From a virus, in IMG/VR virus record IMGVR_UViG_3300009068_004979: a stretch of DNA of 64,000 bases. One strand, 5' to 3'. The position numbers were made by a program, and so were the translations under genes. Under the pieces are notes generated by a model, which made no database searches, was not told the DNA's origin, and saw only the letters and a program-made list of their open reading frames with translations. Positions 1 through 63,951 of this stretch are shown one piece after another. Numbering within the stretch: the stretch's first letter is position 1; every line of letters starts with the position of its first letter.

Positions 1-782
1 GAGGTACTAGAAAAAGAATTCTGCTTTGCTGTTTCATATAACTTGATTCTATTATAGTCATTTTTAAGCGGGTTTTCAACTAATATGGCCAACTGTTCTT
101 CAAATGATTTAGTATGAATGAATGGCATAAGAGAATAGTGCACCGGGTGTAAAGATATGCCTTGATTGGTTATATCCATGTTAGTTGTGCCTGAAGTCTC
201 ATCTTTTAGATCAATTAAATTAATCCCATATGCTTTCATTATTTCGCCAACTAGAACATCTTCTCCTTTGTATGTTTCCGGTGTATTATGAAATGTATCA
301 AAATTATTCAGCGTGATTGTTTTTACTGCCTCATAATCTAAGATATAAAAGCTGCCTTCAGCATATGCATTTTTTGCATCGCGTTTGGAAACATGAAATG
401 ATTTGTTCTTTATTTTATAATGATGATATGTTGCTGCACGATTGGGCTCATTCTTTTTACCTGCATATTTGACATTCGACAAATTGAGTTGCAGAAACTT
501 CTCAACATTAACATAGGTATCATCATTAACTTTAACAACGTGTGTGAAGTCACAATGTTGCAGAAGTTTTTGCATGGCCAGATATGTTTTAAGTGGCAAT
601 TGCTCATAACACTCTTGGAAGTTTTCCAGGTATAAAGAATTTGGTAGATCATTTAACTTATCACCTGAAACAAAGAAAAATGGTATATTGTTTTTAATCA
701 AATCCTGAATCCAAGTATCCAGAAGGCATTTACACCTGTGCACAGTTTTAGCGCAGGTGTAAATTACGAACACGCATTTCAT
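1..782 (-). CDS. GT31 (Fringe/beta-1,3-galactosyltransferase-like) glycosyltransferase, runs off the window edge; absent from the ORF track
   Basis: Manual translation from ATG at 782 is open to base 1: MKCVFVIYTC..RCKCLLDTW..ECYEQLPLKTY..FTHVVKVNDDTYVN..YAEGSFYILD..GEDVLVG..LHPVH. These are the GT31 motifs in order. ATGA overlap (779-782) with the upstream gene. Confidence 0.75.
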   Translation of the reverse strand, partial: MKCVFVIYTCAKTVHRCKCLLDTWIQDLIKNNIPFFFVSGDKLNDLPNSLYLENFQECYEQLPLKTYLAMQKLLQHCDFTHVVKVNDDTYVNVEKFLQLNLSNVKYAGKKNEPNRAATYHHYKIKNKSFHVSKRDAKNAYAEGSFYILDYEAVKTITLNNFDTFHNTPETYKGEDVLVGEIMKAYGINLIDLKDETSGTTNMDITNQGISLHPVHYSLMPFIHTKSFEEQLAILVENPLKNDYNRIKLYETAKQNSFSST

Positions 783-1039
783 TTAATAGACGATATTAAT
801 TTTTGTATGAAACAGGCCTTGTAGTAATTTACTTCACAAGCATTGCAGTTGCTTCTTTTAATGATTCTTTCTTCTGCTTTAAAATATTCATCACGCAATG
901 CATCACCATTGGGGAAAATGGAAGGAACAGGTAAGTCTTTATTAAAGAAATCTCTCAGCTCAGAATCATATACATCTGTTTTCCGCTCAATTTCTTTTTC
1001 GAGCTCATCATACTGCTGAAGATTTTCTGTGTCAAGCAT
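779..1039 (-). CDS. Small hypothetical protein with C-terminal CxxC-x8-C
   Basis: 86 aa ORF containing SNCNACEVNYYKAC; its stop overlaps the GT31 start. Confidence 0.6.
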   Translation of the reverse strand: MLDTENLQQYDELEKEIERKTDVYDSELRDFFNKDLPVPSIFPNGDALRDEYFKAEERIIKRSNCNACEVNYYKACFIQKLISSIK

Positions 1040-1096
1040 AAAAAGATATTTTAAATATATAGCTCAAAGCTGAAGTTTTGCAACTATATCGTAGAG

Positions 1097-1729
1097 TTAT
1101 AATAAATCCTTAGGGTTCATAGCAAAGCTTACAAATCTTGCATTTTGCCCTGTCAGGCTGGCTCTATGTGGTAAAATTCCGTTAAAAATAAAATAATCAC
1201 CTTTTTTGCTTAAAAGCTTTTCTTCTCTATCAACACTTACAATAAAGTCACCATCTTCTATATCTTCTAATAAGAAGTGTATCATAACAGCATCGTGACC
1301 GTGCCCTTCGTCTTCAAGAACTAGAGCGCCTTGCTTGAAACAAAATATCCAAGCTACAGATAGCCAAGTAGGTAATATTTTTAGAGTATTTGCAAAAAAA
1401 GCTGCATCAGAATAAACATGCATCTTTCCTGCAATTTGTTGCATTTCAGCAGTCTTCAAAGCATAGTTTTGTTCTGGTCCATCTAAAATAAAATTAAATA
1501 ATTCTTCTTTATACCCAGTGCAGCCACACTTCTTGACAGAGCTATACATAAATGGCAGAGAATACATTTTAATATAATCTGTTTGTAAAATTTTATTATA
1601 TTTAGTATGCTGCTCAATTGGCAAATTTTGCAAAAAATCATAGTAATCTTTACATGCGGCTTGTACTAGCTCATCTTTAATCTGTACTAAATTTGGAAAC
1701 GTTTCAATAGATAAAAAATTTGTTTTCAC
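1097..1729 (-). CDS. Asp/Asn beta-hydroxylase-like cupin oxygenase
   Basis: GHGHD..MIHFLL..GDYFIFNGILPHRA..ARFV fits the AspH-type double-stranded beta-helix; GTG start. Confidence 0.55.
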   Translation of the reverse strand: MKTNFLSIETFPNLVQIKDELVQAACKDYYDFLQNLPIEQHTKYNKILQTDYIKMYSLPFMYSSVKKCGCTGYKEELFNFILDGPEQNYALKTAEMQQIAGKMHVYSDAAFFANTLKILPTWLSVAWIFCFKQGALVLEDEGHGHDAVMIHFLLEDIEDGDFIVSVDREEKLLSKKGDYFIFNGILPHRASLTGQNARFVSFAMNPKDLL

Positions 1730-1734
1730 TACTA

Positions 1735-2346
1735 TTAATTAATACTATTGTTAAGCAAATCTATACGCGCAGCGAAAACAATTAAACATACATATCCACC
1801 GATGCATCTAGCGCTATGAAGTAATCTCCCATCTAGCGAAAAAAAATGACCTAATTTGCTTGCTTTGTATTCATGATTGTTGCAGTGTACTTGTAAATAT
1901 CCATTGTGCTCAATATCATTAAGAAGAATAAAGGTATGCATTTCGGCTTCATCATGTATGTGACTAGGTATATGTGAGTTTGCTTTTATATAGAGTAATG
2001 TAGTATTAGTAATACAATCAATACTATTAGCTAGTTTAGATATGTTTGGAAAATAAAGCGAACTATCATATGCATATATACTTTGATCAAAACTCGCATA
2101 AGCTTGTCGACATGCATCATCTTGGCATGAAATTTCGGGATCAAAGATTATATTGCATTCAATAGCTTTACTTGCAGGGTCTTTAGAATGCAGTCTAACA
2201 AAATACATGTTAGTCAGTTCATTCTTTATAAATTCATCATGTCTGTTTTTCTCTTTTTGCGGCAAGTTTATTAAGAATCTGCTTACTTCTTCTTGAATTA
2301 ATAATAAGCTTTTATCAGGCAAAAAATGCGTATTGGTATAAATCAT
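1735..2346 (-). CDS. Asp/Asn beta-hydroxylase-like cupin oxygenase
   Basis: IKANSHIPSHIHD..HTFILL..FFSLDGRLLHSA; paralogous to both neighbours. Confidence 0.55.
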   Translation of the reverse strand: MIYTNTHFLPDKSLLLIQEEVSRFLINLPQKEKNRHDEFIKNELTNMYFVRLHSKDPASKAIECNIIFDPEISCQDDACRQAYASFDQSIYAYDSSLYFPNISKLANSIDCITNTTLLYIKANSHIPSHIHDEAEMHTFILLNDIEHNGYLQVHCNNHEYKASKLGHFFSLDGRLLHSARCIGGYVCLIVFAARIDLLNNSIN

Positions 2347-2351
2347 ATTAA

Positions 2352-3005
2352 TTAGAATTCAGATCCCACAACCAATAACGTACGGTTTTTTTTGCCTCGC
2401 TCTATTGCTATATGCTCATATGAAGAATCAAATATAAGCAGGGGTTCCTCAGGACATAGGTGCACAGATTTGCCAAGTGCTTCAATTTGCATATATTCAT
2501 CTGATTCAGTTAAATTAAAAGATGACAAATAATATTGAGGATGGTCATGCGGATCAAAATGTGTACCAGGCTTAAATTCAATAAACATTGCTTGCCACAA
2601 TTTGGGTACATGTTGTGTTACTAGTGCATAAGATTCTTTAAAGAGATAAGAAATGTCTTCATCAGAGAAATAATTAAAATCAAACATTTTTTTAAGTGTT
2701 ACATGATGCTTAATATAAGAGCGCTCTTCTGGTGTCATCTGGTATGTAGGAGCACAAATACCATTATAATATCCAGTATCTTCTTTAAATTTTCTTGTGG
2801 GGTTCTTAGTGAAAAACGGTACAGATAATGCTTTAATTAAAGGGCAACTTAGCATATTGTTTAAATGCTCTGCTGCTACCGGATGCGCTGTTTGTACAGT
2901 GTGTTTGTAATTCTCATACTCGCTCAAGAATACCTGTTTATGTTGTAGCAGTGTTAAGGCCCAGTACAAATTTTCAGGTACATTTTCTCTAGTATATAAT
3001 ATCAT
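2352..3005 (-). CDS. Asp/Asn beta-hydroxylase-like Fe(II) oxygenase
   Basis: FKPGTHFDPHDH..LLIFDSSYEHIA..NRTLLVV resembles AspH PGT.I.PH..FDDS.EHE..R..L. Confidence 0.65.
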   Translation of the reverse strand: MILYTRENVPENLYWALTLLQHKQVFLSEYENYKHTVQTAHPVAAEHLNNMLSCPLIKALSVPFFTKNPTRKFKEDTGYYNGICAPTYQMTPEERSYIKHHVTLKKMFDFNYFSDEDISYLFKESYALVTQHVPKLWQAMFIEFKPGTHFDPHDHPQYYLSSFNLTESDEYMQIEALGKSVHLCPEEPLLIFDSSYEHIAIERGKKNRTLLVVGSEF

Positions 3006-3745
3006 AAGGCCTCTCTACAATGAAGATATTTTAAATATATAGCTCTAAGCCGTAGTTTCTCAACTCTGCCTATATAATTTTCAATGTATCCTTTTTTAGT
3101 CGTTCCCCATGGCTTATACTCAATAAAATGTAAAATCTTTATATCTTTAAAATCTATTCTGCTTAGTAGATCTAGTGTGGTATTATAGCTTATTGGCATG
3201 GGTGTTATTTTATCTGCAAAGAATAAATTGAGTGGTATTTGATTGCCACTAAATTTTTTTGTCTGAACAATATTCAAAAGCTCTTCTCTTATGCTTTCAT
3301 TTAAATGGCTCTTGCCTATGACCATAACACCGGCGTTGAACCCAATTTGCTCATTATTATATACTAGATTGTGCTTATATTCGTTACAACTTATATTAAA
3401 ATCACCTTCAAAATTAAAAATATCTGAAATACTATTGAGTATTATAGTATCACTATCTAGGTACAAGATTTTGTCGTATTTCTTGAGTTTGAATATATCA
3501 AATTTGCATACTGGTGAAATGCCCCAGTCCCGCGAAAAATATTTGCTATATTCCTTATATTCTGATATGCGCTTAAAAATAATATTGTGATTTTTATTAA
3601 CTGGTACTGCTTTAAAATCTAAATCATCTGTGTGCATAATTACAATATCACAGCTGAGCTGTCCGTTAATATATAAACTCTTTAATGAGCAGATTAGAGA
3701 GTTAAAATAATTTGAATTAACTATGTATACAACTGCTGTTTTCAT
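3002..3745 (-). CDS. Glycosyltransferase family 8 (glycogenin/LgtC-like)
   Basis: YDKILYLDSD, FNAGVMV, NQIPLN, HFIEYKPW; likely start MKTAVV at 3745 (track start 3757). Confidence 0.85.
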   Translation of the reverse strand: MKTAVVYIVNSNYFNSLICSLKSLYINGQLSCDIVIMHTDDLDFKAVPVNKNHNIIFKRISEYKEYSKYFSRDWGISPVCKFDIFKLKKYDKILYLDSDTIILNSISDIFNFEGDFNISCNEYKHNLVYNNEQIGFNAGVMVIGKSHLNESIREELLNIVQTKKFSGNQIPLNLFFADKITPMPISYNTTLDLLSRIDFKDIKILHFIEYKPWGTTKKGYIENYIGRVEKLRLRAIYLKYLHCREAL

Positions 3746-4556
3746 GGTAATATTCATTTACAAAGCTGGCTTGCAAGTCAGCCGGTAACGTTGCAGAAAA
3801 ATCTGTTATCATATTTTTATAGACCAAATGCTGCACTCGATTCATGGGTTGCTTGGCTCTTATTGCTTTTCTTATATTTAAAAATGTATTTTGATTGATG
3901 ATGCGCTTAGAAAGCATGCATGTATAATTATAAGCAGCGATATTGACTTCATGTGGCGGTTCAACGCTATATTTGTCAGCACCATAATAATAAAGACTTT
4001 TATCTAAGAAAGATATTTTTTTATTTTGCATAATGAACTCAAGCCATAGCAGATAATCTTGATATCGAGAAAGACTCTCCGGATACCATCCTAACTCTTC
4101 TACCACTTGTTTTTTATACATCACATTATGCTCAATATGATTAAAAAAGATCATTTTAAAAGGTAAGAATTCTAGTCTTGTCAATTGTTTGTGTTGCGAT
4201 TTAGTTGAAAAATTTGAGTAAACTAAATCACTATGATCTTGCTGTAATTTAGTAAGAAATAATTCTAGTCTGTCTGGACCGGAGATATTATCTGAATCTT
4301 GTCTTAGGATGTAGGTGCCTCTGCATAGCTTTAATCCTATATTCAGAGCTCTTGATATACCCTGATTATATGGCAACGTATGAATGATAATTCTAGGATC
4401 AGTATATTGTTTAAGTATTTGTGTTGTAGTGCTATTGCTGCCATCATTAATAATAATAAACTCGAAATCACTATAGGACTGATTTACAATAGATTCAATG
4501 CTCAGTTGAAGATTGTCTTTGCTTTCATTAAATACAGGCATTAGTACGGACACCAT
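3717..4556 (-). CDS. Glycosyltransferase family 2
   Basis: MVSVLMPVFNE, FEFIIINDGS, NQGISRALN, RQDSD, YQDYLLW; start reassigned to MVSVL at 4556. Confidence 0.9.
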   Translation of the reverse strand: MVSVLMPVFNESKDNLQLSIESIVNQSYSDFEFIIINDGSNSTTTQILKQYTDPRIIIHTLPYNQGISRALNIGLKLCRGTYILRQDSDNISGPDRLELFLTKLQQDHSDLVYSNFSTKSQHKQLTRLEFLPFKMIFFNHIEHNVMYKKQVVEELGWYPESLSRYQDYLLWLEFIMQNKKISFLDKSLYYYGADKYSVEPPHEVNIAAYNYTCMLSKRIINQNTFLNIRKAIRAKQPMNRVQHLVYKNMITDFSATLPADLQASFVNEYYHENSSCIHS

Positions 4557-4584
4557 ACAAGCATTTAAGTAGGAATAATATATT

Positions 4585-5400
4585 ATGCAACGCAAACTAG
4601 CCTTTGTATCAACTTTAAATAGGGACTACCTTCTAGGGTTCAAGGTATTTTTATATAGCATATTGCAGCATAATCCAAATTTAGATTACGACTATATTAT
4701 TTTTAACGAGGGAGACATAACGCAAGAGGATGTTGCAGAGCTACGTAAAATATATAGTAAAATTATTCTTAAAGAAATTGATACTACTTTTTATAGTGAC
4801 TGCAAATTTCAAGCCTATAGAGCTTGGAAAATAAACCCTGCTCATAGATTGGAAATATTCAAATTAACTGAATATGATAAAATCATATTCTTTGACGCAG
4901 ATATGCTTTGCACTGGTAGTATAGCAGAACTCTTTACTATGAGTCATGATTTTGCTGGCGTTGCACACCCTATGCATGATGCAGGAGATATTTATAACTA
5001 TGGCTATTTCAAGCAAAATAAAGGGTTTAATGGTGGATTAATGGTTGTAGATAAGAAATTTTTAACTGAAAAGACAGTTGATGATTTAAAGAAAATAATA
5101 AGCGGTTATACTTGGTTTGGTAACCAAGCCAGTTTAAACATATATTTTAAAGATACAGTAACATACATTGCAAACAAATATTTTCTCTCCACACCATTTA
5201 TGAATTTTAAAAATATTAAAGAATCGGTAATATGGCATTTTGTTGGAGATAAAAAACCGTGGCATGGTGTTCCTTTTGATGGAAAAAATATTGACGTAAT
5301 GCATATAAAGTATAACAAGCATGTGCTTGGATCTACCGCTTTTCATGTATTAATGAAAGTGCAATCAGTGTACGAGAAGTATCTTGCTAAAGTTTTGTAA
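4585..5400 (+). CDS. Glycosyltransferase family 8 (glycogenin-like)
   Basis: YDKIIFFDADML, FNGGLMV, GNQASLN, HFVGDKKPW. Confidence 0.85.
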   Translation: MQRKLAFVSTLNRDYLLGFKVFLYSILQHNPNLDYDYIIFNEGDITQEDVAELRKIYSKIILKEIDTTFYSDCKFQAYRAWKINPAHRLEIFKLTEYDKIIFFDADMLCTGSIAELFTMSHDFAGVAHPMHDAGDIYNYGYFKQNKGFNGGLMVVDKKFLTEKTVDDLKKIISGYTWFGNQASLNIYFKDTVTYIANKYFLSTPFMNFKNIKESVIWHFVGDKKPWHGVPFDGKNIDVMHIKYNKHVLGSTAFHVLMKVQSVYEKYLAKVL

Positions 5401-6069
5401 TAAACTGCTTCTGCCAAATCCTTCGGTGTTTACTTGTAATTTTCTACTAGTAATGTAGCTATCTATGTGATTAAAGAGTGTTTTATCATGCGTATTGCTT
5501 TCCAGGGTGAATGGCGTAAAAAATATTTTTTTAAAAAATAGTAGATCAAAATTAACTCCATTGACAAAGCAACGTCTTATGAAATCACTATATGGTGTCG
5601 CCACACCATCTTTCATTAATGATTCATCAAAACCTCGCATTTGATCAAATACTTGTTTACCGATAACTAGCAATTTTTCTGTTATTTCTGTTATTTTATT
5701 AGAAACAAGTATATTATCTGGTTTTGTTTTAATTAATTTAGATATGAAATATGCATTTAATATGGTATGATTTGTATTTAAGATAAGAACTTCTCCTTGT
5801 GCAGCTTTGCAAAGTAAATTAAGAGGATGCGAGGCTTGAAAGCGCTGCGGTCTTTCATTTTGATAAAAATTAACCTTTCCGCTTTCTATTGCTTTTGCGT
5901 AATGTTTCTTAATAATTTCATCTACATTTTTTTTGTAAGGGTAATTTAAAATCACTAGCTCATAATTTAAACCAGCCATTTCAAGTAATTTTATATTTGT
6001 ATCAATAGCGGTTTTAGATTGCTCAAGAGTATCATCATAAAATACACAGTAAGAATATTTGGGTTTCAT
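5365..6069 (-). CDS. Divergent GT-A fold protein (GT2/GT7C-like) lacking DxD
   Basis: ELVILNY, N....AAQGEVLIL, FDQMRGFDESL, SDFIRR; LNTNHT lies where the DxD is expected. Confidence 0.5.
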   Translation of the reverse strand: MKPKYSYCVFYDDTLEQSKTAIDTNIKLLEMAGLNYELVILNYPYKKNVDEIIKKHYAKAIESGKVNFYQNERPQRFQASHPLNLLCKAAQGEVLILNTNHTILNAYFISKLIKTKPDNILVSNKITEITEKLLVIGKQVFDQMRGFDESLMKDGVATPYSDFIRRCFVNGVNFDLLFFKKIFFTPFTLESNTHDKTLFNHIDSYITSRKLQVNTEGFGRSSLLQNFSKILLVH

Positions 6070-7448
6070 ATTTTAAAAAACCACGTAGGTAGCGGTTTAT
6101 AAAACCCAACTTTTTCAAAAATTTCTTTGCCTTGATTGTCTACATCTACAAAAGGAAATTTATTAGCCAACATGTATTGCCGCTGGGGTTGTTTAAAATG
6201 TTGATAAATGCTTTTATCAAGCCACAATGTTTCTTGCCAAACTTCCTTATCTAGATATGGGTATCTTACTTCCAATCCATGTAGACCACAACAAAATTCA
6301 CATGAATAGATGTTGTTATCATCAAAATCAATAACGCCGTTAATATCATTAAGCTTTTTAAACAGCTGATTTATGTTCTTGTTCCCAATGACGTCACCTG
6401 CAAGACCAGATAGGCAAATCCTATAGCCCTCTTTCTTGGCTTTTGAAAATATAGCACCAGCTCCTAAGAAGCCATATGTTTCACGACAGACTCGGGACTT
6501 AAACTTGCCTTCATCAAAATAAAAATAACGATAGTCTTCGCATAAACTATAAATGGTGTCTTTTATTTCTTTTAACTCTTTGAACGATAAATTCATGTAT
6601 TCTTTATCTTTTATATTTGGTATCTCTATTTGTATATTCTCAACAACGGGTAGGGGCTTGGTAGCTGTATCATGGCGCCATAATAAAACATTGCTTGGAG
6701 GTGTTTTAACATTTACAGAGAAAGCTTTGAAGTTTAAGTTGTTTTTGAGGAGGCTTGCGCAAATAGTGCCGCTATCAAACCCTTCACTCAAGCCAATGAA
6801 TACTTTCTTATCAACATTGCTTGCTCGTTTTAATATGCTTCTTTCAAATGCAGCATTCCAATCATTAAAATCTGTTTTATACTCATTGTCAAGATCAAAT
6901 TCTGTAACGCGGTGAAGAGCCAAGTTTTTTTTCTTTGTATCTGCTATATAAAAATAATTGCCATATACACGGTGCACTTGCTTAAACCCTAGAATCTTAA
7001 GACAGCTTTCATATGTGGACATACCATATGATTCATTTTCAAACGAAAAAAAGATAGGTTTTGTGCCAAATGTATCTGATCCAAATATAATTTTGTTATT
7101 TTTAAAATCAATTAAAACAATAGCAAACTCACCATCAAGTTGTTTAAAGAATGTTTCACCATACTTTAAATAACATGGAATAAGACATTCACCATCAGAA
7201 GTATATTTGTCAGAAAAAGTTTTATAATTGTAAATTTCACCATTAAAAATACAAACAATGTCATGTTCCATATCAACAAAAGGCTGCTTTGTGAACAATC
7301 CTGTTATGCTGAGTAGGTTGTGTACAAATGTGACACCGCGGTGTTTGAAGATATTAGTAAGGTCTGGACCACGTAATTTTTGATAGAAATTGGCCTTCTC
7401 TAAGTCTTTGCTACTGATATCTTTGCTGGTTACAAGGAAACTGCACAT
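6066..7448 (-). CDS. asnB: Asparagine synthetase B-like glutamine amidotransferase
   Basis: Met-Cys N-terminus (MCSFL at 7448), RGPD, HNLLSITG..QP, FNGEIYNY, LDGEFA, D.FG.KP, LSEGFDSG, EVRYPYLD. Confidence 0.85.
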   Translation of the reverse strand: MCSFLVTSKDISSKDLEKANFYQKLRGPDLTNIFKHRGVTFVHNLLSITGLFTKQPFVDMEHDIVCIFNGEIYNYKTFSDKYTSDGECLIPCYLKYGETFFKQLDGEFAIVLIDFKNNKIIFGSDTFGTKPIFFSFENESYGMSTYESCLKILGFKQVHRVYGNYFYIADTKKKNLALHRVTEFDLDNEYKTDFNDWNAAFERSILKRASNVDKKVFIGLSEGFDSGTICASLLKNNLNFKAFSVNVKTPPSNVLLWRHDTATKPLPVVENIQIEIPNIKDKEYMNLSFKELKEIKDTIYSLCEDYRYFYFDEGKFKSRVCRETYGFLGAGAIFSKAKKEGYRICLSGLAGDVIGNKNINQLFKKLNDINGVIDFDDNNIYSCEFCCGLHGLEVRYPYLDKEVWQETLWLDKSIYQHFKQPQRQYMLANKFPFVDVDNQGKEIFEKVGFYKPLPTWFFKI

Positions 7449-7502
7449 ATAATTAATTATGACATAAATTGAAAATAGCATTTTCTTTATTAAATCATTT
7501 AA

Positions 7503-8654
7503 ATGATGGATGCAGAGTTTTGTATTTTGCCATGGGTTTCTCTTTATATTCGGGCAGATGGTAACATTTATCCGTGTGAGAGTGTAGCATGGAGCGGTGA
7601 CGATTATCTATTGGGCAATATAGAAGATTGTTCATTGGAGCAAGCATGGAATCATAGAGTGATGTGTGAATTGAGAAAAAAGGTTCTTCAATTAGGTACT
7701 TGCGAGCTCTCTAATGTTCAAAAAAATTCATGCATGTATTTGATCAATCACAGTCTTTATGCTGAAGCATATAAAAATGTAACAAAAACGCAACCAGACG
7801 GAACAGCTGAATTTACATTGCAAGCATTATTCTTAGAACGTTCAAACATGTGCAATTTGAAATGCATTTACTGCTGTGCTACTAGCAGCTCTATTTGGGA
7901 GAAAGAATCTGATGTAAAGATTAAGAAAATACCTGATGAAGATTATGATAAAAAATTGTTACCGTATCTTAATAAATTAAAAGAAATTTTTCTTTCTGGT
8001 GGTGAGCCGGTAATTAATCCTTATAACTATAAAATTTTAACTTATCTTTTAGAGCATAATCCTAATATACAAATCGGTATAGCAACAAACTTAACCTATG
8101 ATATTAACAAGTATAGTAAATTTTTTACAGCCTTATCAAAATTTACTAATACCCGAGTTTTTTGTAGTATTGATGATGAAGGCGAACGTTTTGAAAATAT
8201 AAGGGTAAATTCAAAATGGTCGCTAGTTAAGAGAAATTTGCGTGTCTTAAAGCAGTATAATGTTAAGATGTATTTTAATTCTGTAATCTCAATTTTAAAT
8301 GCATTTTATTTTAAAGAATTTCATAAAAACCTTATAAATGATAATATATTAGATATAGATAGTGTTCGCTATATAACACTTGCGGGTCCTGGCAATTTGT
8401 GTATTCAAGGTTTATCTGATAATAAAAAGGATGAATTAAAATCCTATCTTTTACAATACTATGCATTTTTGCGAAGCAAAGAAAATAACAAGCACAATAT
8501 AGACACTTATCCAAATTATAAAAAACCGTCGGATGCAATAAAACAAATTATAGAATTTTTATATGCCCGAACAGGTAGTGAAGCATACTTGCAAAATATC
8601 ACTAAATATGTTCCTGAGTGTGTATTACAAAAAACGTTTATGAAATTATTTTAA
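7503..8654 (+). CDS. Radical SAM enzyme with N-terminal twitch/SPASM domain
   Basis: FCILPW..DGNIYPC N-terminal twitch; CNLKCIYC; FLSGGEP; SIDD.GERFENIR. Confidence 0.9.
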   Translation: MMDAEFCILPWVSLYIRADGNIYPCESVAWSGDDYLLGNIEDCSLEQAWNHRVMCELRKKVLQLGTCELSNVQKNSCMYLINHSLYAEAYKNVTKTQPDGTAEFTLQALFLERSNMCNLKCIYCCATSSSIWEKESDVKIKKIPDEDYDKKLLPYLNKLKEIFLSGGEPVINPYNYKILTYLLEHNPNIQIGIATNLTYDINKYSKFFTALSKFTNTRVFCSIDDEGERFENIRVNSKWSLVKRNLRVLKQYNVKMYFNSVISILNAFYFKEFHKNLINDNILDIDSVRYITLAGPGNLCIQGLSDNKKDELKSYLLQYYAFLRSKENNKHNIDTYPNYKKPSDAIKQIIEFLYARTGSEAYLQNITKYVPECVLQKTFMKLF

Positions 8655-8933
8655 TTTTACAGTTCCTATTGTATAGTTTTCTGAAAGCTCGTAAATAGAA
8701 TTTCCTATATAAATTCCTTTATCAAGATCATAATATGTGAATCCGCTGTTGTTTTTTTCTGATTCATTATATTTTATAATGAATATGTTTTTATTTAATA
8801 TACTTCTCTCGTAGGTGCCTTTTGAATATGGCATGCCTTTGTTATTATGAGTCAAAAATGTGCCGTCGTTATTTAAAACTGTAACATATTCATTGGGCTT
8901 ACCTTCATCTGAATGCAATTCTATATAGTTCAT
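8646..8933 (-). CDS. Small beta-rich hypothetical protein resembling the N-terminal extension of the 11780-13336 radical SAM
   Basis: 95 aa ORF filling the gap; LNNDGTF..GMPYSKGTY. Confidence 0.5.
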   Translation of the reverse strand: MNYIELHSDEGKPNEYVTVLNNDGTFLTHNNKGMPYSKGTYERSILNKNIFIIKYNESEKNNSGFTYYDLDKGIYIGNSIYELSENYTIGTVKLK

Positions 8934-9873
8934 GGATTACAAAATTAAAATGTTTAAGTACTTAGTGTCAAATATTTGCTTTATAACTGATAATTTACTG
9001 CCAAATTATTTGGAAAAACCTGTATATTATCGATTTCGTGATGGGCCATTAGCATTTACAGGCAAGTATATACACACAGCTTATAACTATTGGATACTAA
9101 AGAATGCTGGTGTTAAGAATGTTAAATTGATAACGAACACTGACGACATAGGTGATGATGATATTTTATTTTTTCATTATGAATATGCAGATAAAATAGA
9201 TTTTAGTAAGCCGTATCCTAAGTTACAGATTTTATCTGACAAGTATAGAGTAGAGGGTGCTGATGCATATTGTGTATATGACCCTTCACATATGGGCCCT
9301 ACAGATGTGCTGTTGTATGACCCATTGCCTGTGGGGCTACAGAGAAAGCGGACTAATGATATACCGCAGATATTTCATTGCAATACCTCTCTGCATTGGA
9401 TGCCAAGTTTTTTAAAGGATGTATCTTTTCTGCAGCAGCTTCAAAAAGAAAATATTCATATTACATTTGAGCATAAAAGACATTATACTAATCAAGATTT
9501 TGATGTGTTCTTTTTTATAAGAGACATAAGTTGTTTAGAGGAAGAAGATGAAGATGGGTCACGACACCATAAAATACATCATTATAAAAATGCAGCAAGA
9601 TTGTTTCAGTCGTGGCACATGGGTGTACCAGGTATCTTTAGTCATCATCCATCCATGGCGTATCTCAAAAAAACTGAGTATGATTATCTGGAGGCGAACA
9701 CTAAGGATGAATTTATTAGTAAATGCAGGCTGTTAAAAACTAATAATGATTACTACAAGCAAATGATACTGAACTGTGACAGACGCGCCGGTGAATTTAC
9801 TAATTCAGCAATAGTCGAACAAATTAGCGACATAATAAAAAAATATCATAAGGAATTAGTTTATGAAATCTGA
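8932..9873 (+). CDS. Putative GT-B-fold glycosyltransferase-like protein
   Basis: C-terminal FDVFFFIR..YKNAARLFQSWHMGVPGIFS..DYLEA fits a nucleotide-sugar-binding Rossmann segment. Confidence 0.5.
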   Translation: MDYKIKMFKYLVSNICFITDNLLPNYLEKPVYYRFRDGPLAFTGKYIHTAYNYWILKNAGVKNVKLITNTDDIGDDDILFFHYEYADKIDFSKPYPKLQILSDKYRVEGADAYCVYDPSHMGPTDVLLYDPLPVGLQRKRTNDIPQIFHCNTSLHWMPSFLKDVSFLQQLQKENIHITFEHKRHYTNQDFDVFFFIRDISCLEEEDEDGSRHHKIHHYKNAARLFQSWHMGVPGIFSHHPSMAYLKKTEYDYLEANTKDEFISKCRLLKTNNDYYKQMILNCDRRAGEFTNSAIVEQISDIIKKYHKELVYEI

Positions 9874-11056
9874 TTGTTTTTGCATTGTACCGTTTGTTTC
9901 ACTATACCGTTCTCATGATAGTAATGTTTACCCCTGTCCTGTGATGGCTTCTTATCCTGAAATGAAGCTCACCACTACAGATAATACATTAAGCGGTGCA
10001 TGGTATTCAGAAAAATTTGTACAATTTAAAAAGGATATGCTTGAAGGCAGAACAAATAAGATATGCACGCAAAGATGTTTGCAGCATGTAAATTCGTGCC
10101 GCACATACTTTGGTACAGAGCTACTTCCATATGTAGAAAAAGATATTGAATTATTTGAGCAAACTGGCACACAAGCATTTAAGCTTCTTTCTAATGATAT
10201 TTTTGATACAAATAAATGCAATTTAAAATGCATTTACTGTAATGCTGATTACAGTTTTCTACATAGTAAAGACTATGTCTTAAAAACTGCACAGCATTGG
10301 GATTCATTTGTAACTGAATTTTCTAGTTATTACAAAGATCTTAAGGAATTGTGGTTTGCATCTGGTGAGAGTGTGCTTCAATCCAAATATTATTATATTT
10401 TAAATACTTTATTAGCAAATGGTAAAACTGACGTACATATAAACTTTATTACTAATATGACATCTTTAGGTACACCCAGCATGTATGATTTGCTTGCTAA
10501 ATTTGAACGTGTTACTGTGTTTGTAAGTGTTGATGGCGATAAACATGTAACTGAATTTTTACGGCAAAACAGCAATTACGAGAATATAATTAAAAATTTA
10601 AAAGCTATAATGCAGTATAATAAGTTTAAAATTATATTACAACCAGTGATGAGTAATATTAATATTCTTTATTTTCCAAAATTTCATTACCAAATGGTAA
10701 AGTTAGGATTGCTCAAAAAAGATAATGTTCGATACTATGTTTTAAATTCACCTGCTCATTTTAATATTAAAGTTCTACCAGAAGCATTAAAAAAGAAAGT
10801 GCTTGTAGAATACGAACCATATATCAAGTGGTTGCTTGAAGAAAAAGATATAGATGTATCTGCAAATAACGAGCACCCAGTAGTAAAGGTGCAGAAAATG
10901 TTGCAGTATATGCAAACAGGTGAACTAAGACCAGAATGGTTTGGTGCACTGCATACATTTTTAATAGAAAACAATCTCATAAATAATTTTAAAGAAGCCT
11001 TCCCGGAATTACAGGAGCTATACTATGCATCAAAAATACATACAACAAAAAATTAA
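9863..11056 (+). CDS. Radical SAM enzyme with N-terminal twitch domain
   Basis: FCIVPF..VYPC; C.QRC; CNLKCIYC; FASGES in place of GGEP; SVDG..EFLR. Confidence 0.88.
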   Translation: MKSDCFCIVPFVSLYRSHDSNVYPCPVMASYPEMKLTTTDNTLSGAWYSEKFVQFKKDMLEGRTNKICTQRCLQHVNSCRTYFGTELLPYVEKDIELFEQTGTQAFKLLSNDIFDTNKCNLKCIYCNADYSFLHSKDYVLKTAQHWDSFVTEFSSYYKDLKELWFASGESVLQSKYYYILNTLLANGKTDVHINFITNMTSLGTPSMYDLLAKFERVTVFVSVDGDKHVTEFLRQNSNYENIIKNLKAIMQYNKFKIILQPVMSNINILYFPKFHYQMVKLGLLKKDNVRYYVLNSPAHFNIKVLPEALKKKVLVEYEPYIKWLLEEKDIDVSANNEHPVVKVQKMLQYMQTGELRPEWFGALHTFLIENNLINNFKEAFPELQELYYASKIHTTKN

Positions 11057-11804
11057 ACACTTTTTAAATAACACCCAAATTAAAAATTTTTTAGACACAT
11101 GCAGCAACACTAATTTAGGTAAAAAACACAAGAACCTTGCCTTGCTGTTTTCATTTAATATTCAGAAAGACGAAATAGTCGCATCAAAACTATATTTTGA
11201 ATTGTATAGATTGTTCAGGCCTTCAGAGATATCTAAATTTTTGCCAGTTACAAAGGACTTTCTAAAGCTGCAATTGTATTGGAATAAGAATCTCGACTCA
11301 TCACTTTGTTTTGGTATCAAAGAAATTAATGGTAAGATAGTGCATTATTTTCATATCAAAACAGATAAAGTATATAACCGTAGAATTCTACCTGCAACTA
11401 GTTGCTTCAACAAACACAACATTGGCATATCTTACGAATACGGTGATGGTAAAGCAGTTAGAAAGATTTATGCTTATTTAACTGAAAAAAAAGACATCAA
11501 CAAATTTTTACACGAAAACGGGTCACAGTACGACACAGACATGTTAGATCATATTGAATACACAGAGACCTCAGATGGTACAAAAAAATACATTCTCGTC
11601 AATGACTTGAACAAATATCCAAAGATCAGCAAGGTAGTATTTACTCAAAATACACATGATGCCATTGATTATATGGAGCAATATGGAGCACAGCCTGTGT
11701 TTTACGGTCATTATCTAGACAAAGACATAACCAGTTTGTATTTTAGTTTTACTAAGAATAGGGACAACTTCAATGCCTTTTATAATTCACACGCATCAAA
11801 ATAA
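11025..11804 (+). CDS. Hypothetical protein, possible ABBA-fold (LynF/TruF/PatF-like) prenyltransferase
   Basis: FSFNIQKDEIVASKLYF, CFGIK, GISYEYGDGKAVRKIY and SLYF resemble PT-barrel strands. Confidence 0.35.
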   Translation: MHQKYIQQKIKHFLNNTQIKNFLDTCSNTNLGKKHKNLALLFSFNIQKDEIVASKLYFELYRLFRPSEISKFLPVTKDFLKLQLYWNKNLDSSLCFGIKEINGKIVHYFHIKTDKVYNRRILPATSCFNKHNIGISYEYGDGKAVRKIYAYLTEKKDINKFLHENGSQYDTDMLDHIEYTETSDGTKKYILVNDLNKYPKISKVVFTQNTHDAIDYMEQYGAQPVFYGHYLDKDITSLYFSFTKNRDNFNAFYNSHASK

Positions 11805-13336
11805 TCTGCTAGCTCAGGAAAAATATTTCGAGCATTTTCATTACGAAGTGCATCTAGCTTCTGTGTTGTATCTTTAAAAAGACTGCGAGTATCATAGTCT
11901 TTTTCATTCATATATATTAACACCTTATTGAAATGTTGTTTTAGCTCTATCGATAAATTATGCTGTTCTTTAAATTCTGAATAAGCTTTTGTAACTTTTA
12001 GCTTAAATTCTTTTGTAAGACTACGAATATCATAAATTTTTGGCTGCTCTAGAAAGCTCAGATGAAAGGATGTTGTACTGCCATCAATGAATTTTAATTT
12101 GGTGAGATATGTATACATTTCGAGCAAATGAAGAACATTAAAAATTTGAACTGTAACAAATATCTTGAAGGTACAATGGGGCACTTCTTTGTGTAGGTAG
12201 AAACGGTTATTAAAGAAATCTTTCCAAATCAATCCTTTGCGAATATATTCACCGCGGTCCTTTATACCATCTAGACTAGCTTTTACAGTGATGTTACTAA
12301 ACAGTTTCCATGTCTGGCAAATGTCTCTGTTGAAGAACTTCAAGTTAGAAAAATTAGTATTGTAAGTAAGATCAACATCAAGGCGTTTTTTTTCAACAAG
12401 CATATCTAAGATATCATAGTGCTCTTTTATCATCAATGGCTCACCACCAGCAAAATTAATTTTTTCTGCTGTATCCACAATGTGAGGTAGATCTGGATAC
12501 ACATTATCCCACACATTAAAAATAGTTTTTTTACCGGAATTCCAGCCCAGCTTCTTCTCATCTTCATACCAAGCTGAGCTTGAATGAGAACTGCACGTGC
12601 GGCATTTGAAGTTGCACAAGTTAGATATTCTAAAATCTGCATAAGCTAAATTAAATGCGTCTACTGATCCATCTTCATTTGTAGCAGTTACTTTATCAAA
12701 ATGATGACTATAATTAGAATTAAAAAACTTTCTATATGAGCTGCCCCAACGCATTTCATTAAGCTTGCAGACTTCACAGGATGGCACATATTTACCAGTG
12801 AGCATGTTTAATCTTATTTTTTTGAGCTTATCAGAGTTCCACAGTTCTTTGAGTGTATTATGTTTTAAATTGCCTAGTAATGTCTTCTTATTCTTGCAAC
12901 ACGGGAATACATATCCTGAGCTTTGCATGTACATGTGCATCCATGGTGCCATGCAGAAGTTATCACTTGCAAACATTTTTTCAGAATTCAAATTTTTAAT
13001 AAAATCTTTATCTAATTTCTCTACGCTATCTCCTTCTGGTGATGTTATCATTAATACTTCATCAACTAGCCTATATGTAAACGCGCGCTCGAAATTACCA
13101 TCATTATAGTTCACAGTAAAAATACATACATTAGTATTGTCTTGCAAAACAAATGTTCCATTCACTGTAGTATCCACTGTTATTTGATATGTGCTACCTG
13201 TCTTTTTAAAATTACCTACAAGTCGAGGCGCGCCATCATCTGATGTAAAGAAATAGAACGAGTCTTTATTTAGATCGAAACTAATTTTACCGAAGTAATC
13301 GCCTCCCTCATAGAGGTAGTAGGAATAAGCGTTCAT
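11780..13336 (-). CDS. Radical SAM enzyme with N-terminal twitch domain and an extra ~110 aa N-terminal beta domain
   Basis: FCMAPW..GYVFPCC, CEVC, SNLCNFKCRTCSS..SSAW, FAGGEPL, YNTN, SLDG..EYIR, LDALRNEN..FPEL. Confidence 0.92.
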   Translation of the reverse strand: MNAYSYYLYEGGDYFGKISFDLNKDSFYFFTSDDGAPRLVGNFKKTGSTYQITVDTTVNGTFVLQDNTNVCIFTVNYNDGNFERAFTYRLVDEVLMITSPEGDSVEKLDKDFIKNLNSEKMFASDNFCMAPWMHMYMQSSGYVFPCCKNKKTLLGNLKHNTLKELWNSDKLKKIRLNMLTGKYVPSCEVCKLNEMRWGSSYRKFFNSNYSHHFDKVTATNEDGSVDAFNLAYADFRISNLCNFKCRTCSSHSSSAWYEDEKKLGWNSGKKTIFNVWDNVYPDLPHIVDTAEKINFAGGEPLMIKEHYDILDMLVEKKRLDVDLTYNTNFSNLKFFNRDICQTWKLFSNITVKASLDGIKDRGEYIRKGLIWKDFFNNRFYLHKEVPHCTFKIFVTVQIFNVLHLLEMYTYLTKLKFIDGSTTSFHLSFLEQPKIYDIRSLTKEFKLKVTKAYSEFKEQHNLSIELKQHFNKVLIYMNEKDYDTRSLFKDTTQKLDALRNENARNIFPELADYFDACEL

Positions 13337-14274
13337 CTGATACCAACAACATAATTTGGTGCTGGTAATAGTAAGGATGGCCAGAAAGAGAAAAGCTGCT
13401 TAGGCGTTTTAAATTGTGTGAAATCCACATCATTGATCACATTGTTAATTAGCTCTTTAATGAATGCTAATTCTTCCAGATCTTGCGCACTACCATGGGT
13501 TTTAATAGCTTCCTCTTCATCTGTTAAGTTTTTAATGGAATCAAGTGCATGCTGTTGAATGCATTGTTTCCACGTATTAATACACTTTTGCATTGTTTCA
13601 GCTGAAGTATCAGTTAAAAGTTTAATTGGCAATTCACACACCTCGCAAGCTCTAACATAGCTAATATAATCAAATATATTGGGAAAATTCTTATCAAAAA
13701 ATGCAATGACCTTCTCCACTTCTTCTTTTTCGTAAAGTTCTATGACTGGTTCTGTAAAGGTTAAAAATTTTTGTTTGTCTTGCTCATCAAATGTGTGTGT
13801 GAAATTATCAAGCTTCTCTTTAATGATTTTATAAGCATTTTTAATAATAAAAAGTTTCTGCATGGTTTCATTGCTTACATAGTTGTTTTCAAAATTATTT
13901 GCTGATAGTTTTTTGCCTCGTTCACGAATCTGATCTAAAGCTTGCTTTTGATATTCAAAAAACTCTTGTGGGGAGATCTTACCTTCGTTTGCTTCATTAA
14001 ACACATATTCTGGGAATACTTCAAATGGCAACTCATACATTTCAAAGGAGTCAATTAAATCTAAATTGATTTCATAAATTAAATTATTTTTTACATCATA
14101 TACAGTAGCCATGTTATTAAAGACAGGCATCGATGCGACAGTTCCATGCAAGTATTTTATAATTTCAGGGCTCCTGGTAATATACAATGAATAATGCCCA
14201 TCATTTGTCACATCATATTTGATTCTGAGCATGACTTTATCCAAGCCACGTGTGAAATACTGTTTACGATCCAT
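13333..14274 (-). CDS. Hypothetical protein with C-terminal tail-fibre-assembly-like helical domain
   Basis: C-terminal LTDEEEAI..G..DLEEL..IKELIN..DFTQFKTPKQLFSFWPSLL resembles small proteins that follow phage fibre genes; ATGA-coupled to the radical SAM gene. Confidence 0.45.
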   Translation of the reverse strand: MDRKQYFTRGLDKVMLRIKYDVTNDGHYSLYITRSPEIIKYLHGTVASMPVFNNMATVYDVKNNLIYEINLDLIDSFEMYELPFEVFPEYVFNEANEGKISPQEFFEYQKQALDQIRERGKKLSANNFENNYVSNETMQKLFIIKNAYKIIKEKLDNFTHTFDEQDKQKFLTFTEPVIELYEKEEVEKVIAFFDKNFPNIFDYISYVRACEVCELPIKLLTDTSAETMQKCINTWKQCIQQHALDSIKNLTDEEEAIKTHGSAQDLEELAFIKELINNVINDVDFTQFKTPKQLFSFWPSLLLPAPNYVVGIR

Positions 14275-16459: not shown

Positions 16460-18112
16460 TTACTTCTGTTTATTATTTAGTTCTTTGATTGCTTCAATCA
16501 ATAACGGTATGATCTTCTCATAGCGTACTGCCTTGGTTCCATTGTCACGGGTAGTAACAATTTCAGGCATGATAGCTTCAATTTCTTGAGCAATGACACC
16601 CACGTCTTTGCCGTGGAACGGGGCATTATCTTGCCATTCAAAGTTAACACCAGATATCTTAGTAATTTTTTCTAATGGCGATGCAATCTTCTTGATGTTC
16701 TTCTTGAGAGTTACATCAGAAGTTGCATAAGCCACAACGTCTTGTGATATTCTCAATCCACCACTGATGGTGACATTGTCAGTAGCTGTAGCATTACTTA
16801 CTTGAATTAAGAATGAATTACCGGCTTGTGCTGATGATAACACTGTGCCAGCTGAACCACCGCGCAACCACAAGTGACCAGTGTCACTAGAATGTATATC
16901 CACATGATCTGTTGTATTGGGTCGTCCTCTGGAGAACAATCCACCTGATACCGCAAACACATAATTACTACCAAATCCTGTGCCATAGTTTAAATTGCGA
17001 TCAATGTTAATGCCTGCTAGTGGTCCATCACGCACAATCAATGTGGGGTTGCCTTCATAACCATCGAAAATAGCTATGGGCTGTTCTGCGTTAGTAGGGT
17101 TAGCTTCTTTAACATACAAAGCTGGTGCTAAATTAGCAGAGAAGTTAATGACACTCAATGCACTAGTGACAGTTACAATGGTTTCAATGTATGTGGCATC
17201 ACCATAAACTGACAAGTTGCCTTGAATAGTTAAGTTCTTATCAATGTATGCGCTATCTCTGAATCTCGGAAAACCAATGAAATCAAAATCTGGTGTATTG
17301 AAATTACCATCATCATTACCATGGCGTGTGGAAGAGAAAGTGATACCCAATGTTGTGGGTGTTGCACTCAAGACTATTTGTTCATATTGTTTTCCTGAAA
17401 GATGGGTTCCAAGGCTCATGGAAGTTTTGCCTTGAATGATGAACCGGCCACTGGTGGATCTCACGACTGTTGTGCTGAGTGTTGGGTGATTTGCGTAAAT
17501 GTGAATAGCAGCACCACTGGTTGTGTTGCCATTAATGAAAAGTGAATTGTCAATGTTAACTGTAGCATTTAAGTTGTTACTGACTTGCTTGTTTCTAACA
17601 TTACCAAAATAGAAACTGCCATAAGCAGCACACAGTGAAAGGTAGCGAGAATCAAACTCAATGGTGCCCAAGCTAAGATTGGATATGCGGTTGCTATTTC
17701 CTGTGGTATTATAAGGATAACAGATGTTAAAACCTTCACCAGCATACGCATTTGGTACACCCCATTTGCCTTGATTGGCTGTTATCTTCTGTAAAGAGAG
17801 CTCATCAACAATGGGATGAATATCATTCCATGTGGAGCCATCCCATGCCCATAAGCGAGTATCTGTAGTTTGATAGATAGTATCACCCACTTCAGCTAGA
17901 GAAGAATATGCAGTTCTGTCGGATGTGATACCTAAGAAATAATTACCAACGGCTTTGCCACCAAGAGAAACACCGTCTCCTATGAACAAACGCTGTGTAT
18001 CAACTGTGTATCCTAATTCACCTTCTGTCAGGATGGTAAGCTTACGCTCATAGTCCTGACCTCTGCGTATCAGAATCTTTACAATTGTATCGCTGGTAAT
18101 CTCAATTGCCAT
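16460..18112 (-). CDS. Tail fibre with Mtd/hyaluronidase-type N-terminal domain and C-terminal S74 intramolecular chaperone
   Basis: IRRG..GELGYTVDTQRLFIGDG; TSDVTLKKNI..GVNFEW..GVIAQEIE..YEKIIPLLIEAIKEL. Confidence 0.85.
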   Translation of the reverse strand: MAIEITSDTIVKILIRRGQDYERKLTILTEGELGYTVDTQRLFIGDGVSLGGKAVGNYFLGITSDRTAYSSLAEVGDTIYQTTDTRLWAWDGSTWNDIHPIVDELSLQKITANQGKWGVPNAYAGEGFNICYPYNTTGNSNRISNLSLGTIEFDSRYLSLCAAYGSFYFGNVRNKQVSNNLNATVNIDNSLFINGNTTSGAAIHIYANHPTLSTTVVRSTSGRFIIQGKTSMSLGTHLSGKQYEQIVLSATPTTLGITFSSTRHGNDDGNFNTPDFDFIGFPRFRDSAYIDKNLTIQGNLSVYGDATYIETIVTVTSALSVINFSANLAPALYVKEANPTNAEQPIAIFDGYEGNPTLIVRDGPLAGINIDRNLNYGTGFGSNYVFAVSGGLFSRGRPNTTDHVDIHSSDTGHLWLRGGSAGTVLSSAQAGNSFLIQVSNATATDNVTISGGLRISQDVVAYATSDVTLKKNIKKIASPLEKITKISGVNFEWQDNAPFHGKDVGVIAQEIEAIMPEIVTTRDNGTKAVRYEKIIPLLIEAIKELNNKQK

Positions 18113-48738: not shown

Positions 48739-48743
48739 AAAAT

Positions 48744-48749
48744 TATTTA
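48744..48749 (-). promoter_or_regulatory. Late promoter box TAAATA (tail tube)
   Basis: 5 nt before ATG 48738. Confidence 0.7.
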
Positions 48750-48763
48750 TTTCCTTTCGCTAC

Positions 48764-59070: not shown

Positions 59071-59334
59071 CTAGCTTTTATTCTTCTTATATTGCTTAAC
59101 ACATGTACCATACACATCTGCAGGTAGTTTCTCGACTATATCAATAATTTTATGTTTTAAGCCATGGCTAAAATTTTCTATTGTTGTATTGCGTAATTGC
59201 ATTTCAGGTAATGCAAGAAAACAATGTTCATGCTGCTGATCTTCAATATATACCCACATTTCTCCCAAGTATTTACCTTGAGTTACAGCGTACAGATACT
59301 TCTTTTTAGGATGACTGGTTGTAAAAATTCTCAT
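59071..59334 (-). CDS. Hypothetical protein
   Basis: Likely start MRIFTT at 59334, which avoids a long overlap with rmlB. Confidence 0.5.
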   Translation of the reverse strand: MRIFTTSHPKKKYLYAVTQGKYLGEMWVYIEDQQHEHCFLALPEMQLRNTTIENFSHGLKHKIIDIVEKLPADVYGTCVKQYKKNKS

Positions 59335-63944: not shown

Positions 63945-63951
63945 ATGTATA

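Follow-up and report, generated by a model that had tools for sequence, protein, structure and literature searches.

Hypervariable gene islands in the structural region are known from aquatic T4-like phages. The host recognition cluster (HRC) of pelagimyophages contains fibres, GT8 glycosyltransferases, and cassettes of radical S-adenosylmethionine (rSAM) genes, lies in a generally plastic region of T4-like phages, and was interpreted as a means of modifying the host O-chain (Zaragoza-Solas 2020, PMC7029224). Genomes of marine T4-like phages can hold as many as 12 rSAM genes (PMC5332604), and the cyanomyovirus S-SCSM2R carries 13 glycosyltransferases and an rSAM "maturase" (PMC12801897). Large aquatic T4-like phages spend tens of kilobases on glycosyltransferases and rSAM enzymes. 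We analyzed a 64,000-nt stretch of the IMG/VR virus record IMGVR_UViG_3300009068_004979 (hereafter, the window), in which positions 1-14274 hold an island of tailoring enzymes next to the tail-fibre genes. Similar to the HRC and the cyanomyovirus glycosyltransferase clusters, it is a hypervariable island of the structural region with fibres, GT8s, sugar-nucleotide enzymes, and rSAM cassettes, and its content shifts by cassette gain and loss. Unlike them, it belongs to a phage that is neither a pelagimyophage nor a cyanophage; a term search found no mention of a prenyltransferase in PMC7029224 or PMC12801897, and an N-terminal-twitch rSAM architecture is described in neither. The kind of island is already known; new are a sub-module of rSAM enzymes and an ABBA (alpha-beta-beta-alpha) prenyltransferase-like protein, and the evidence for a modular, optional architecture. 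As the target of the tailoring, we favor the virion proteins of the phage itself, with the distal adhesin/fibre as the most likely acceptor, at a probability of roughly 0.4.

Positions 1-14274 comprise 17 consecutive, tightly packed open reading frames (ORFs), the same number as in a preliminary description of this DNA. Families were called by Pfam gathering scores and NCBIfam curated cut-offs, and PHROG, Foldseek/PDB, and Atlas feature scores were also used. The island genes, the adjoining adhesin and fibre genes, and a distant pair of rhamnose genes are as follows.

3-782, minus strand: GT31/Fringe-like glycosyltransferase (Pfam Galactosyl_T 44.3 bits, cut-off 23; Fringe 21.9 bits, cut-off 21)
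779-1039, minus strand: conserved protein of 86 aa (orf86) containing a CxxC pair, found after GT8 in three lineages
1097-1729 and 1735-2346, minus strand: two proteins of 203/210 aa, paralogous to each other (mutual E 2e-7) and bearing HxHD...H motifs
2352-3005, minus strand: PF05118 oxygenase of the AspH/LpxO/OlsC family, ox3 (Pfam 30.4 bits, cut-off 22.6)
3002-3757, minus strand: GT8 glycosyltransferase a, GT8a (Pfam 67.6 bits, cut-off 24.3)
3717-4556, minus strand: GT2 glycosyltransferase (Pfam 107 bits; PDB matches generic GT2)
4585-5400, plus strand: GT8 glycosyltransferase b, GT8b (Pfam 78 bits, cut-off 24.3)
5365-6069, minus strand: 234-aa protein with an ATGA overlap with the AsnB gene (sub-threshold GT2 match only, 17 bits, cut-off 23.3)
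6066-7448, minus strand: AsnB-type glutamine amidotransferase, 460 aa (Pfam GATase_7/6 and Asn_synthase)
7503-8654, plus strand: N-terminal-twitch rSAM enzyme, 383 aa (NF033640 202 bits, cut-off 170; SPASM at residues 7-67, Radical_SAM at 113-261)
8646-8933, minus strand: 95-aa beta-rich ORF weakly resembling (E 0.02) the additional N-terminal domain of the 518-aa rSAM enzyme
8932-9873, plus strand: GT-B fold glycosyltransferase, GT1/GT4-like (Atlas feature score 0.97, TM 0.80)
9863-11056, plus strand: N-terminal-twitch rSAM enzyme, 397 aa (NF033640 197 bits, cut-off 170)
11025-11804, plus strand: ABBA (PT-barrel) prenyltransferase-like protein, 259 aa (AlphaFold2 model, pLDDT 93.7)
11780-13336, minus strand: N-terminal-twitch rSAM enzyme, 518 aa, extended at the N terminus by a domain of ~120 aa (NF033640 367 bits, cut-off 170)
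13333-14274, minus strand: 313-aa helical protein, the last gene after the adhesin, with homologues only in the closest lineages L001/L004
14308-16454, minus strand: FG-GAP/He_PIG adhesin (Pfam), 715 aa after adding a missing G
16460-18112, minus strand: distal tail fibre that carries Mtd_N and an intramolecular chaperone (Peptidase_S74) and is the conserved anchor of the slot
59306-61155, minus strand: two-enzyme NDP-L-rhamnose route (4,6-dehydratase and NRS/ER-type 3,5-epimerase/4-reductase)

The island occupies a fixed slot with varying content, as a hypervariable host-recognition cluster does. The same slot was filled in 10 related lineages, and the linkage to fibre genes, which had been suggested as a check, was kept. 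Relatives with a filled slot include L001/L004, L007/L016, L094, and six IMG/VR contigs (L numbers denote the phage loci compared), whose rSAM, fibre, or ABBA proteins were only 31-55% identical. In the IMG/VR contigs L106-L108 the slot was empty: the fibre is followed by small ORFs and then by PDDEXK and dCMP deaminase genes within ~1.4 kb, and two extra genes (a second adhesin pair) that normally follow the S74 fibre are also missing. To the left of the window, near-identical contigs add two island genes, encoding a PIG-L deacetylase and a short-chain dehydrogenase/reductase (SDR), beyond which lie small ORFs and the genes of a PDDEXK nuclease, of dCMP deaminase, and of ribonucleotide reductase. 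The island was expected to run past the left edge, and it does, yet for only ~1.7 kb. The whole island is thus ~16 kb with ~19 genes between the distal fibres/adhesin and a nucleotide-metabolism block, and the fibre and adhesin genes said to abut it were found as the FG-GAP adhesin and the Mtd_N/Peptidase_S74 fibre.

Three modules were distinguished. The first, a glycan module, comprises two GT8s, the GT2, the GT31, the PIG-L deacetylase, the SDR, and the AsnB-type amidotransferase. The second comprises two to three N-terminal-twitch rSAM enzymes, the ABBA prenyltransferase-like protein, and the GT-B enzyme. The third, confined to one lineage, is a cassette encoding three cupin/AspH-like proteins. 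The loci L099 and L100 have islands with glycosyltransferases only, and L009, L011, and Vibrio phage K566 have clusters with rSAM genes only; a single 17-gene pathway was rejected, as modules were found separately. The ABBA gene travels with the N-terminal-twitch rSAM genes: it was present in eight of nine lineages that have them (the ninth locus is truncated) and in none of five that do not (p 0.003, for lineages within one phage family that are not phylogenetically independent).

In the pathway that we favor, the glycosyltransferases would work in the cytoplasm and assemble a short oligosaccharide straight on a soluble acceptor, using host UDP-sugars and phage-made NDP-rhamnose as donors. 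The glycan would be tailored by de-N-acetylation of GlcNAc (PIG-L) and amidation of carboxylates (AsnB), and the rSAM/ABBA module would contribute C-H chemistry and possibly a prenyl group. Carried by virion proteins, these modifications would tune host recognition or virion stability. The preliminary description had read the locus in a similar way; its glycan-building and tailoring pathway beside the fibres is supported, and its virion-protein target is plausible at the probability given above, though unproven.

Several observations argue for this target. None of the 17 island proteins has a transmembrane segment (maximum 19-residue hydropathy at most 1.7), which supports a soluble acceptor, and no flippase, polymerase, or lipid-carrier transferase was found among them by Pfam and hydropathy. 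GT8a and GT8b are nearest to GT8s that act on cytoplasmic protein glycans, namely Gat1 (Skp1), glycogenin, and GlyE (PsrP), and the modeled ABBA protein is nearest to peptide prenyltransferases of cyanobactin pathways. The slot by the S74 fibre is the same in the 10 lineages, and the island-less relatives also lack the two extra genes. In the window, as in L001/L004, the 518-aa rSAM gene shares an overlap with the final gene of the fibre-strand block (in the window, its start overlaps the stop of 13333-14274). The rhamnose route follows the two-enzyme NRS/ER scheme, and a Mimivirus UDP-L-rhamnose synthase was matched as well.

Two groups of known glycosylation systems come close. In the Skp1 pathway (PhyA, Gnt1, PgtA, and Gat1), on glycogenin, and on serine-rich-repeat adhesins (GlyE and GalT1), soluble GT8 and GT2 enzymes act stepwise on a cytoplasmic protein, and on Skp1 a 2-oxoglutarate (2OG) oxygenase acts first. 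The island differs in that its GT8 E-values are modest, no acceptor motif was found in the window structural proteins, and its oxygenases are an optional insertion. A precedent for virion proteins as the target is the glycosylation of mycobacteriophage virions (Freeman 2023, cited in PMC12619734); there, and on chlorovirus and mimivirus capsids/fibrils, virus-encoded soluble glycosyltransferases act on structural proteins. The island differs from these systems in that no C-terminal acceptor tail was found in the window structural proteins and in its depletion of late promoter boxes relative to neighboring structural genes.

Both GT8 Pfam matches cover profile positions 2-251. The closest PDB structure of GT8a was GlyE (5gvv, E 6e-8), followed by Gat1, WbbM, and glycogenin, and those of GT8b were the Skp1 alpha-GalT Gat1 (6mw5), glycogenin-2/1, and GlyE; across both proteins the matches were modest (E 1e-5 to 6e-8), and the lipooligosaccharide enzyme LgtC was absent among them at E <= 0.01. 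The earlier assignments to GT31 and to glycogenin-type GT8 were supported. The 3' end of the GT31 gene lies ~2 codons outside the window, and the full-length protein has 262 aa in near-identical contigs (L013); homologues in L001/L004 were 42-45% identical, and a sequence search of the PDB gave nothing usable. For the GT-B protein, homologues were found in L001, L004, and L007. The 234-aa protein at 5365-6069, which had no NCBIfam or PHROG match, is possibly of GT-A fold; of the up to six glycosyltransferases proposed earlier, five (GT31, two GT8, GT2, and GT-B) were recovered and this sixth one is unproven. In the 86-aa protein, DFF, P..P, LR, C65, and C68 are invariant, and conservation spans the entire length.

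The AsnB-like amidotransferase was also recovered, with intact motifs of a class II glutamine amidotransferase and a PP-loop: Cys2, NGEIY, SxGxDSG, and ExRYPxLD are invariant in four phage homologues. Its TIGR01536 score of 119.8 bits is under the equivalog cut-off of 267 bits, and by sequence the protein is an AsnB-type paralogue rather than asparagine synthase itself. The start is probably the MCSF near 7448, which supplies the Cys2 nucleophile, rather than the longest-ORF start. The GT2 start is likely the ATG at 4556 (MVSVLMPVFN) and not the TTG at 4595; relatives were called at 279/284 aa. With these two starts corrected, the apparent overlap of divergent gene starts disappears.

The rhamnose genes had been named as suppliers of the island. 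The dTDP-glucose 4,6-dehydratase scored over its cut-off (TIGR01181, 378 bits against 365), and the epimerase/reductase matched plant NRS/ER (4qqr, 6e-24) and Mimivirus UDP-L-rhamnose synthase (7jid, 3e-20) far better than bacterial RmlD (1e-7). No RmlA or RmlC gene was found beside them.

The three rSAM proteins exceed the NF033640 cut-off, as the earlier call of three twitch-type enzymes had implied, and match the full model. In all three, SPASM precedes Radical_SAM, so that a Cys-rich twitch domain lies N-terminal of the CxxxCxxC core, as in the NF033640 family; the alignment has conserved C42, C60, C102, and C105, and then C156, C160, and C163. What sets the island apart within this family is the presence of three paralogues, one with an additional N-terminal domain, and the linkage to an ABBA protein. 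The extension is kept in homologues of the 518-aa enzyme, which are 48-92% identical. The 95-aa ORF has positional equivalents of 83/87 aa that are likewise beta-rich and divergent from the GT-B gene (L001:16935-17186 and L004:16926-17189). These ORFs loosely resemble the extension and might be stand-alone versions of a domain for substrate handling. Full-text literature searches found no characterized NF033640 member, a single-protein IMG/VR scan with the 518-aa enzyme returned nothing, and tblastn with the rSAM against cultured phages gave only three distant matches.

Clusters of such genes were observed in other phages. Vibrio phage K566 (L097, OZ196521.1 161548-168284), a cultured 255-kb phage, has four N-twitch-like rSAM genes clustered amid hypothetical genes and is the sole cultured handle found for the phage N-twitch rSAM family. 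Jumbo-phage contigs of 343 kb and 123 kb (L009:6277-13302 and L011:5385-12880) carry rows of four to five N-twitch-type rSAM genes, one of them an 852-aa tandem fusion, on the downstream side of a GP38-type adhesin gene. These rows adjoin genes for a carbamoyltransferase, dCMP deaminase, and DegT aminotransferase, and have no glycosyltransferase or ABBA gene.

The ABBA protein had been guessed to be a LynF-type prenyltransferase, and structure prediction agreed. Its model shows five alpha-beta-beta-alpha units around a ten-stranded barrel, and Foldseek retrieved PagF (4.6e-8) and then PirF, LimF, DciF, and PatF (E 5e-8 to 1e-5, TM 0.5-0.63). There were 76 PDB matches at E <= 0.001, with ABBA prenyltransferases throughout among the matches listed. 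We confidently assign the modeled protein to the ABBA fold, closest to the cyanobactin peptide prenyltransferases. It shares the barrel with the cyanobactin F family (PagF, PirF, LimF, DciF, PatF, and KgpF), which gave the best structural matches, and differs from it in identity (10-15%) and length (259 versus ~295 aa); unlike in cyanobactin clusters, no precursor, protease, or heterocyclase gene lies nearby. The family is small (45 representatives among 1.8 billion), and K55, Y57, K99, E138, Y149, E178, and K188 are invariant in it. Invariant Lys, Tyr, His, and Glu residues lie on the barrel strands of the model, where the basic and aromatic ones are the only indication of a possible prenyl-diphosphate binding and transfer to a peptide. 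No Pfam (PTase_Orf2/DUF5838) or NCBIfam match was obtained at E <= 0.01, and the Atlas lead scored 0.89; a profile search of PDB sequences gave nothing usable, and tblastn against cultured phages gave no match. A full-text search for prenyltransferase together with phage, tail-fibre, radical SAM, or glycosyltransferase retrieved no paper on a phage prenyltransferase.

The third module was bracketed by a direct repeat.

1043-1085, minus strand: 43-nt direct repeat, copy A, promoter-like (TTGCAA-N16-TATATA), at the downstream flank of the oxygenase cassette
3023-3065, minus strand: 43-nt direct repeat, copy B, within the GT8a gene at its 3' end and on the upstream side of the oxygenase cassette

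The two copies are 88% identical with a promoter-like TTGnnn-N16-TATATA core and enclose the three oxygenase genes, which points to an inserted cassette. The triplet was found only in the lineage of the window, and in L001/L004 the GT8 and the small ORF are directly adjacent. The arrangement resembles the promoter-mediated module shuffling of T4-type phages. Of the three AspH-like oxygenases reported earlier, only ox3 scores over the PF05118 cut-off. It has weak NCBIfam matches to OlsC/LpxO and no transmembrane segment, and it gave no tblastn match in cultured phages and nothing usable in a PDB sequence search. The paralogous pair has no PF05118 match and no BLASTP similarity to ox3, and both proteins are near-orphans with homologues only within the same lineage. 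The model of one paralogue (ox2) was poor (pLDDT 53), and all of its Foldseek matches were cupins or 2OG oxygenases, including AspH (5apa); the pair is predicted to be of probable cupin/double-stranded beta-helix fold on this weak cupin support.

Other results weigh against virion proteins as the target. The order of hydroxylation followed by glycosylation, which the preliminary description had drawn from structural proteins such as collagen, is not a conserved design here, because the oxygenase triplet is a lineage-specific, repeat-flanked insertion. In a scan of the tail, baseplate, and fibre proteins (no capsid gene was identified in the window), the Asx-hydroxylation motif of epidermal growth factor (EGF) type, C-x-D/N-x4-F/Y-x-C, occurred in none of 25 structural proteins; Pfam found no EGF domain in the 10 scanned for it, and there was no collagen repeat or Ser/Thr-rich tract. 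Acceptors of the EGF/Asx-hydroxylation, collagen, and Ser/Thr-tract types were therefore rejected. Adjacency to the fibres proves little, because the slot is generally plastic in T4-like phages (PMC7029224). The island is dispensable, being absent in at least two relatives, and its modules occur apart. The neighbors of bacterial N-twitch rSAM genes are envelope-glycan genes (GT2, GT1, PMT_2, UbiA, PEP mutase, and carbamoyltransferase), and no ABBA gene was seen among them.

The expression class also counts against this target. Two sharply placed, nearly leaderless promoter classes were observed throughout the window (e.g., 63945-63990, 48739-48760, and 20244-20260), and no Shine-Dalgarno-like spacing was evident. 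The late class (ATAAATA ending 5-7 nt before the ATG) lies at structural genes, and the early class (TTGAyT-N16-TAnnAT ending 6-7 nt before the ATG) at replication genes. When 11 loci were pooled, only 4 of 121 island genes had the late box 3-9 nt ahead of the ATG, compared with 33 of 127 neighboring structural genes (p 2e-7). Two island operons of L007 have canonical early-type TTGnnn-N16-TATAAT promoters, and the promoter of 13333-14274 (TTGATT-N16-TAAATT, 5 nt ahead of the ATG) has a geometry that agrees with the early class no worse than with the late class. Given such early-like promoters, it can no longer be argued that the island merely belongs to the fibre operon. Virion modification is still compatible with early expression, as enzymes can precede their substrates.

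A more specific form of the virion-protein reading concerns the second module. The rSAM/ABBA/GT-B sub-module would act as a maturation system in the style of peptides that are made by the ribosome and modified after translation (RiPPs), adding rSAM modifications and a prenyl group to the distal adhesin/fibre, while the glycan module glycosylates the same proteins. We regard this version as rather unlikely.

The main rival of virion-protein tailoring is remodeling of the host envelope, which we consider possible, if doubtful. Soluble enzymes would alter lipid-linked O-antigen, capsule, or core intermediates of the host at the inner face of the inner membrane, and the host would export the products; superinfection could be blocked, for example, or the adsorption of progeny to debris prevented. 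This is the published view for the pelagimyophage HRC (PMC7029224) and the large cyanomyovirus glycosyltransferase clusters (PMC12801897). It accords with island promoters that are not of the late type (early-type in L007), with the envelope-glycan genes around bacterial N-twitch rSAM genes, and with island content as hypervariable as that of O-antigen loci. WbbM was among the GT8a matches, and the PF05118 relatives LpxO and OlsC act on lipids; yet ox3 has no membrane anchor of the kind expected for a lipid hydroxylase, and the two GT8s are nearer to protein-glycan GT8s than to LgtC. The island encodes no membrane protein at all and lacks an initiating phosphoglycosyl transferase, a flippase, a polymerase, and a ligase, and neither the membrane flippase/transferase nor the lipid-carrier glycosyltransferase of Gtr-type or Wzx/Wzy-dependent O-antigen modification was found among its proteins. 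The resemblance of the ABBA protein to peptide prenyltransferases also speaks against a lipid-linked substrate, and a benefit of the remodeling to a lytic phage is hypothetical.

A diffusible or intracellular small product is considerably less probable. The rSAM, ABBA, AsnB, and glycosyltransferase set would make a RiPP-like peptide or a pseudo-oligosaccharide. SPASM/twitch rSAM enzymes, F-type prenyltransferases, and AsnB-like proteins are classic peptide maturases, and GT-B, PIG-L, and twitch rSAM enzymes together are reminiscent of aminoglycoside pathways. The co-occurrence of ABBA and N-twitch rSAM genes and the small conserved ORFs within the module fit such a product; matches of the island proteins to NCBIfam peptide-maturase families were weak. 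However, no leader/core precursor was found; orf86 is conserved from end to end like an enzyme partner, and no RiPP recognition element, protease, or exporter was found in the island by Pfam, PHROG, and a transmembrane scan. The AsnB protein retains the glutaminase Cys2, which lasso cyclases lack.

Hypermodification of the phage DNA, in which the glycosyltransferases would decorate a modified base, is the least probable reading and can hardly be maintained, as no hydroxymethylase, DNA kinase, or DpdA was seen in the island or the window (the lack of a hydroxymethylase and a nucleotide kinase had been pointed out before) and GT8, GT31, and ABBA are not known as DNA-modifying families. In its favor, PDDEXK, dCMP deaminase, and ribonucleotide reductase genes border the island, the island promoters are early-like, and glycosyltransferases of phages hypermodify DNA (Pyle 2024, as cited in PMC12619734).

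Genes of the window for gp32, a clamp-loader subunit, primase, the large terminase, the tail sheath, the wedge and hub of the baseplate, and a long series of fibre-like proteins identify a T4-like myophage. Its large terminase (TerL) was at most 38.7% identical to that of every phage in the collection, with Sinorhizobium phage phiM9 at the top, which places the phage far from all cultured phages as judged from protein sequence. At near identity, the DNA of 1-14274 and of 20000-44000 had no match in INPHARED, and an exact 40-mer had none in IMG/VR; several freshwater and lake metagenome studies contained near-identical DNA.

Two genes adjoining the fibre need comment. The adhesin appears split into ORFs of 232 and 559 aa in the window. 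An extra G behind 15938 was found in contigs of three sequencing runs, including a ~94% identical relative; its insertion restores a single 715-aa ORF, and the protein has 719 aa in L001/L004. A programmed frameshift was ruled out because three assemblies carry the extra base, and the split is a record error or a rare variant. The 313-aa protein of 13333-14274 had no Pfam, NCBIfam, or PHROG match.

The analysis establishes the limits of the island, modules that are independently gained and lost, and the joint travel of ABBA and N-twitch rSAM genes, and it brings out sequence features that favor a cytoplasmic soluble acceptor over a lipid-linked one. A vague label of "LPS (lipopolysaccharide) genes" is replaced by testable alternatives, and the cultured Vibrio phages K566/K567 are a possible handle for related rSAM clusters. 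If virion proteins are the target, phage virion glycosylation would extend to Gram-negative aquatic systems, with new chemistry in addition. If the rSAM/ABBA/GT-B sub-module matures the adhesin/fibre, these would be the first prenylated or radical-SAM-tailored virion proteins, and a function would be assigned to the uncharacterized N-terminal-twitch rSAM family.

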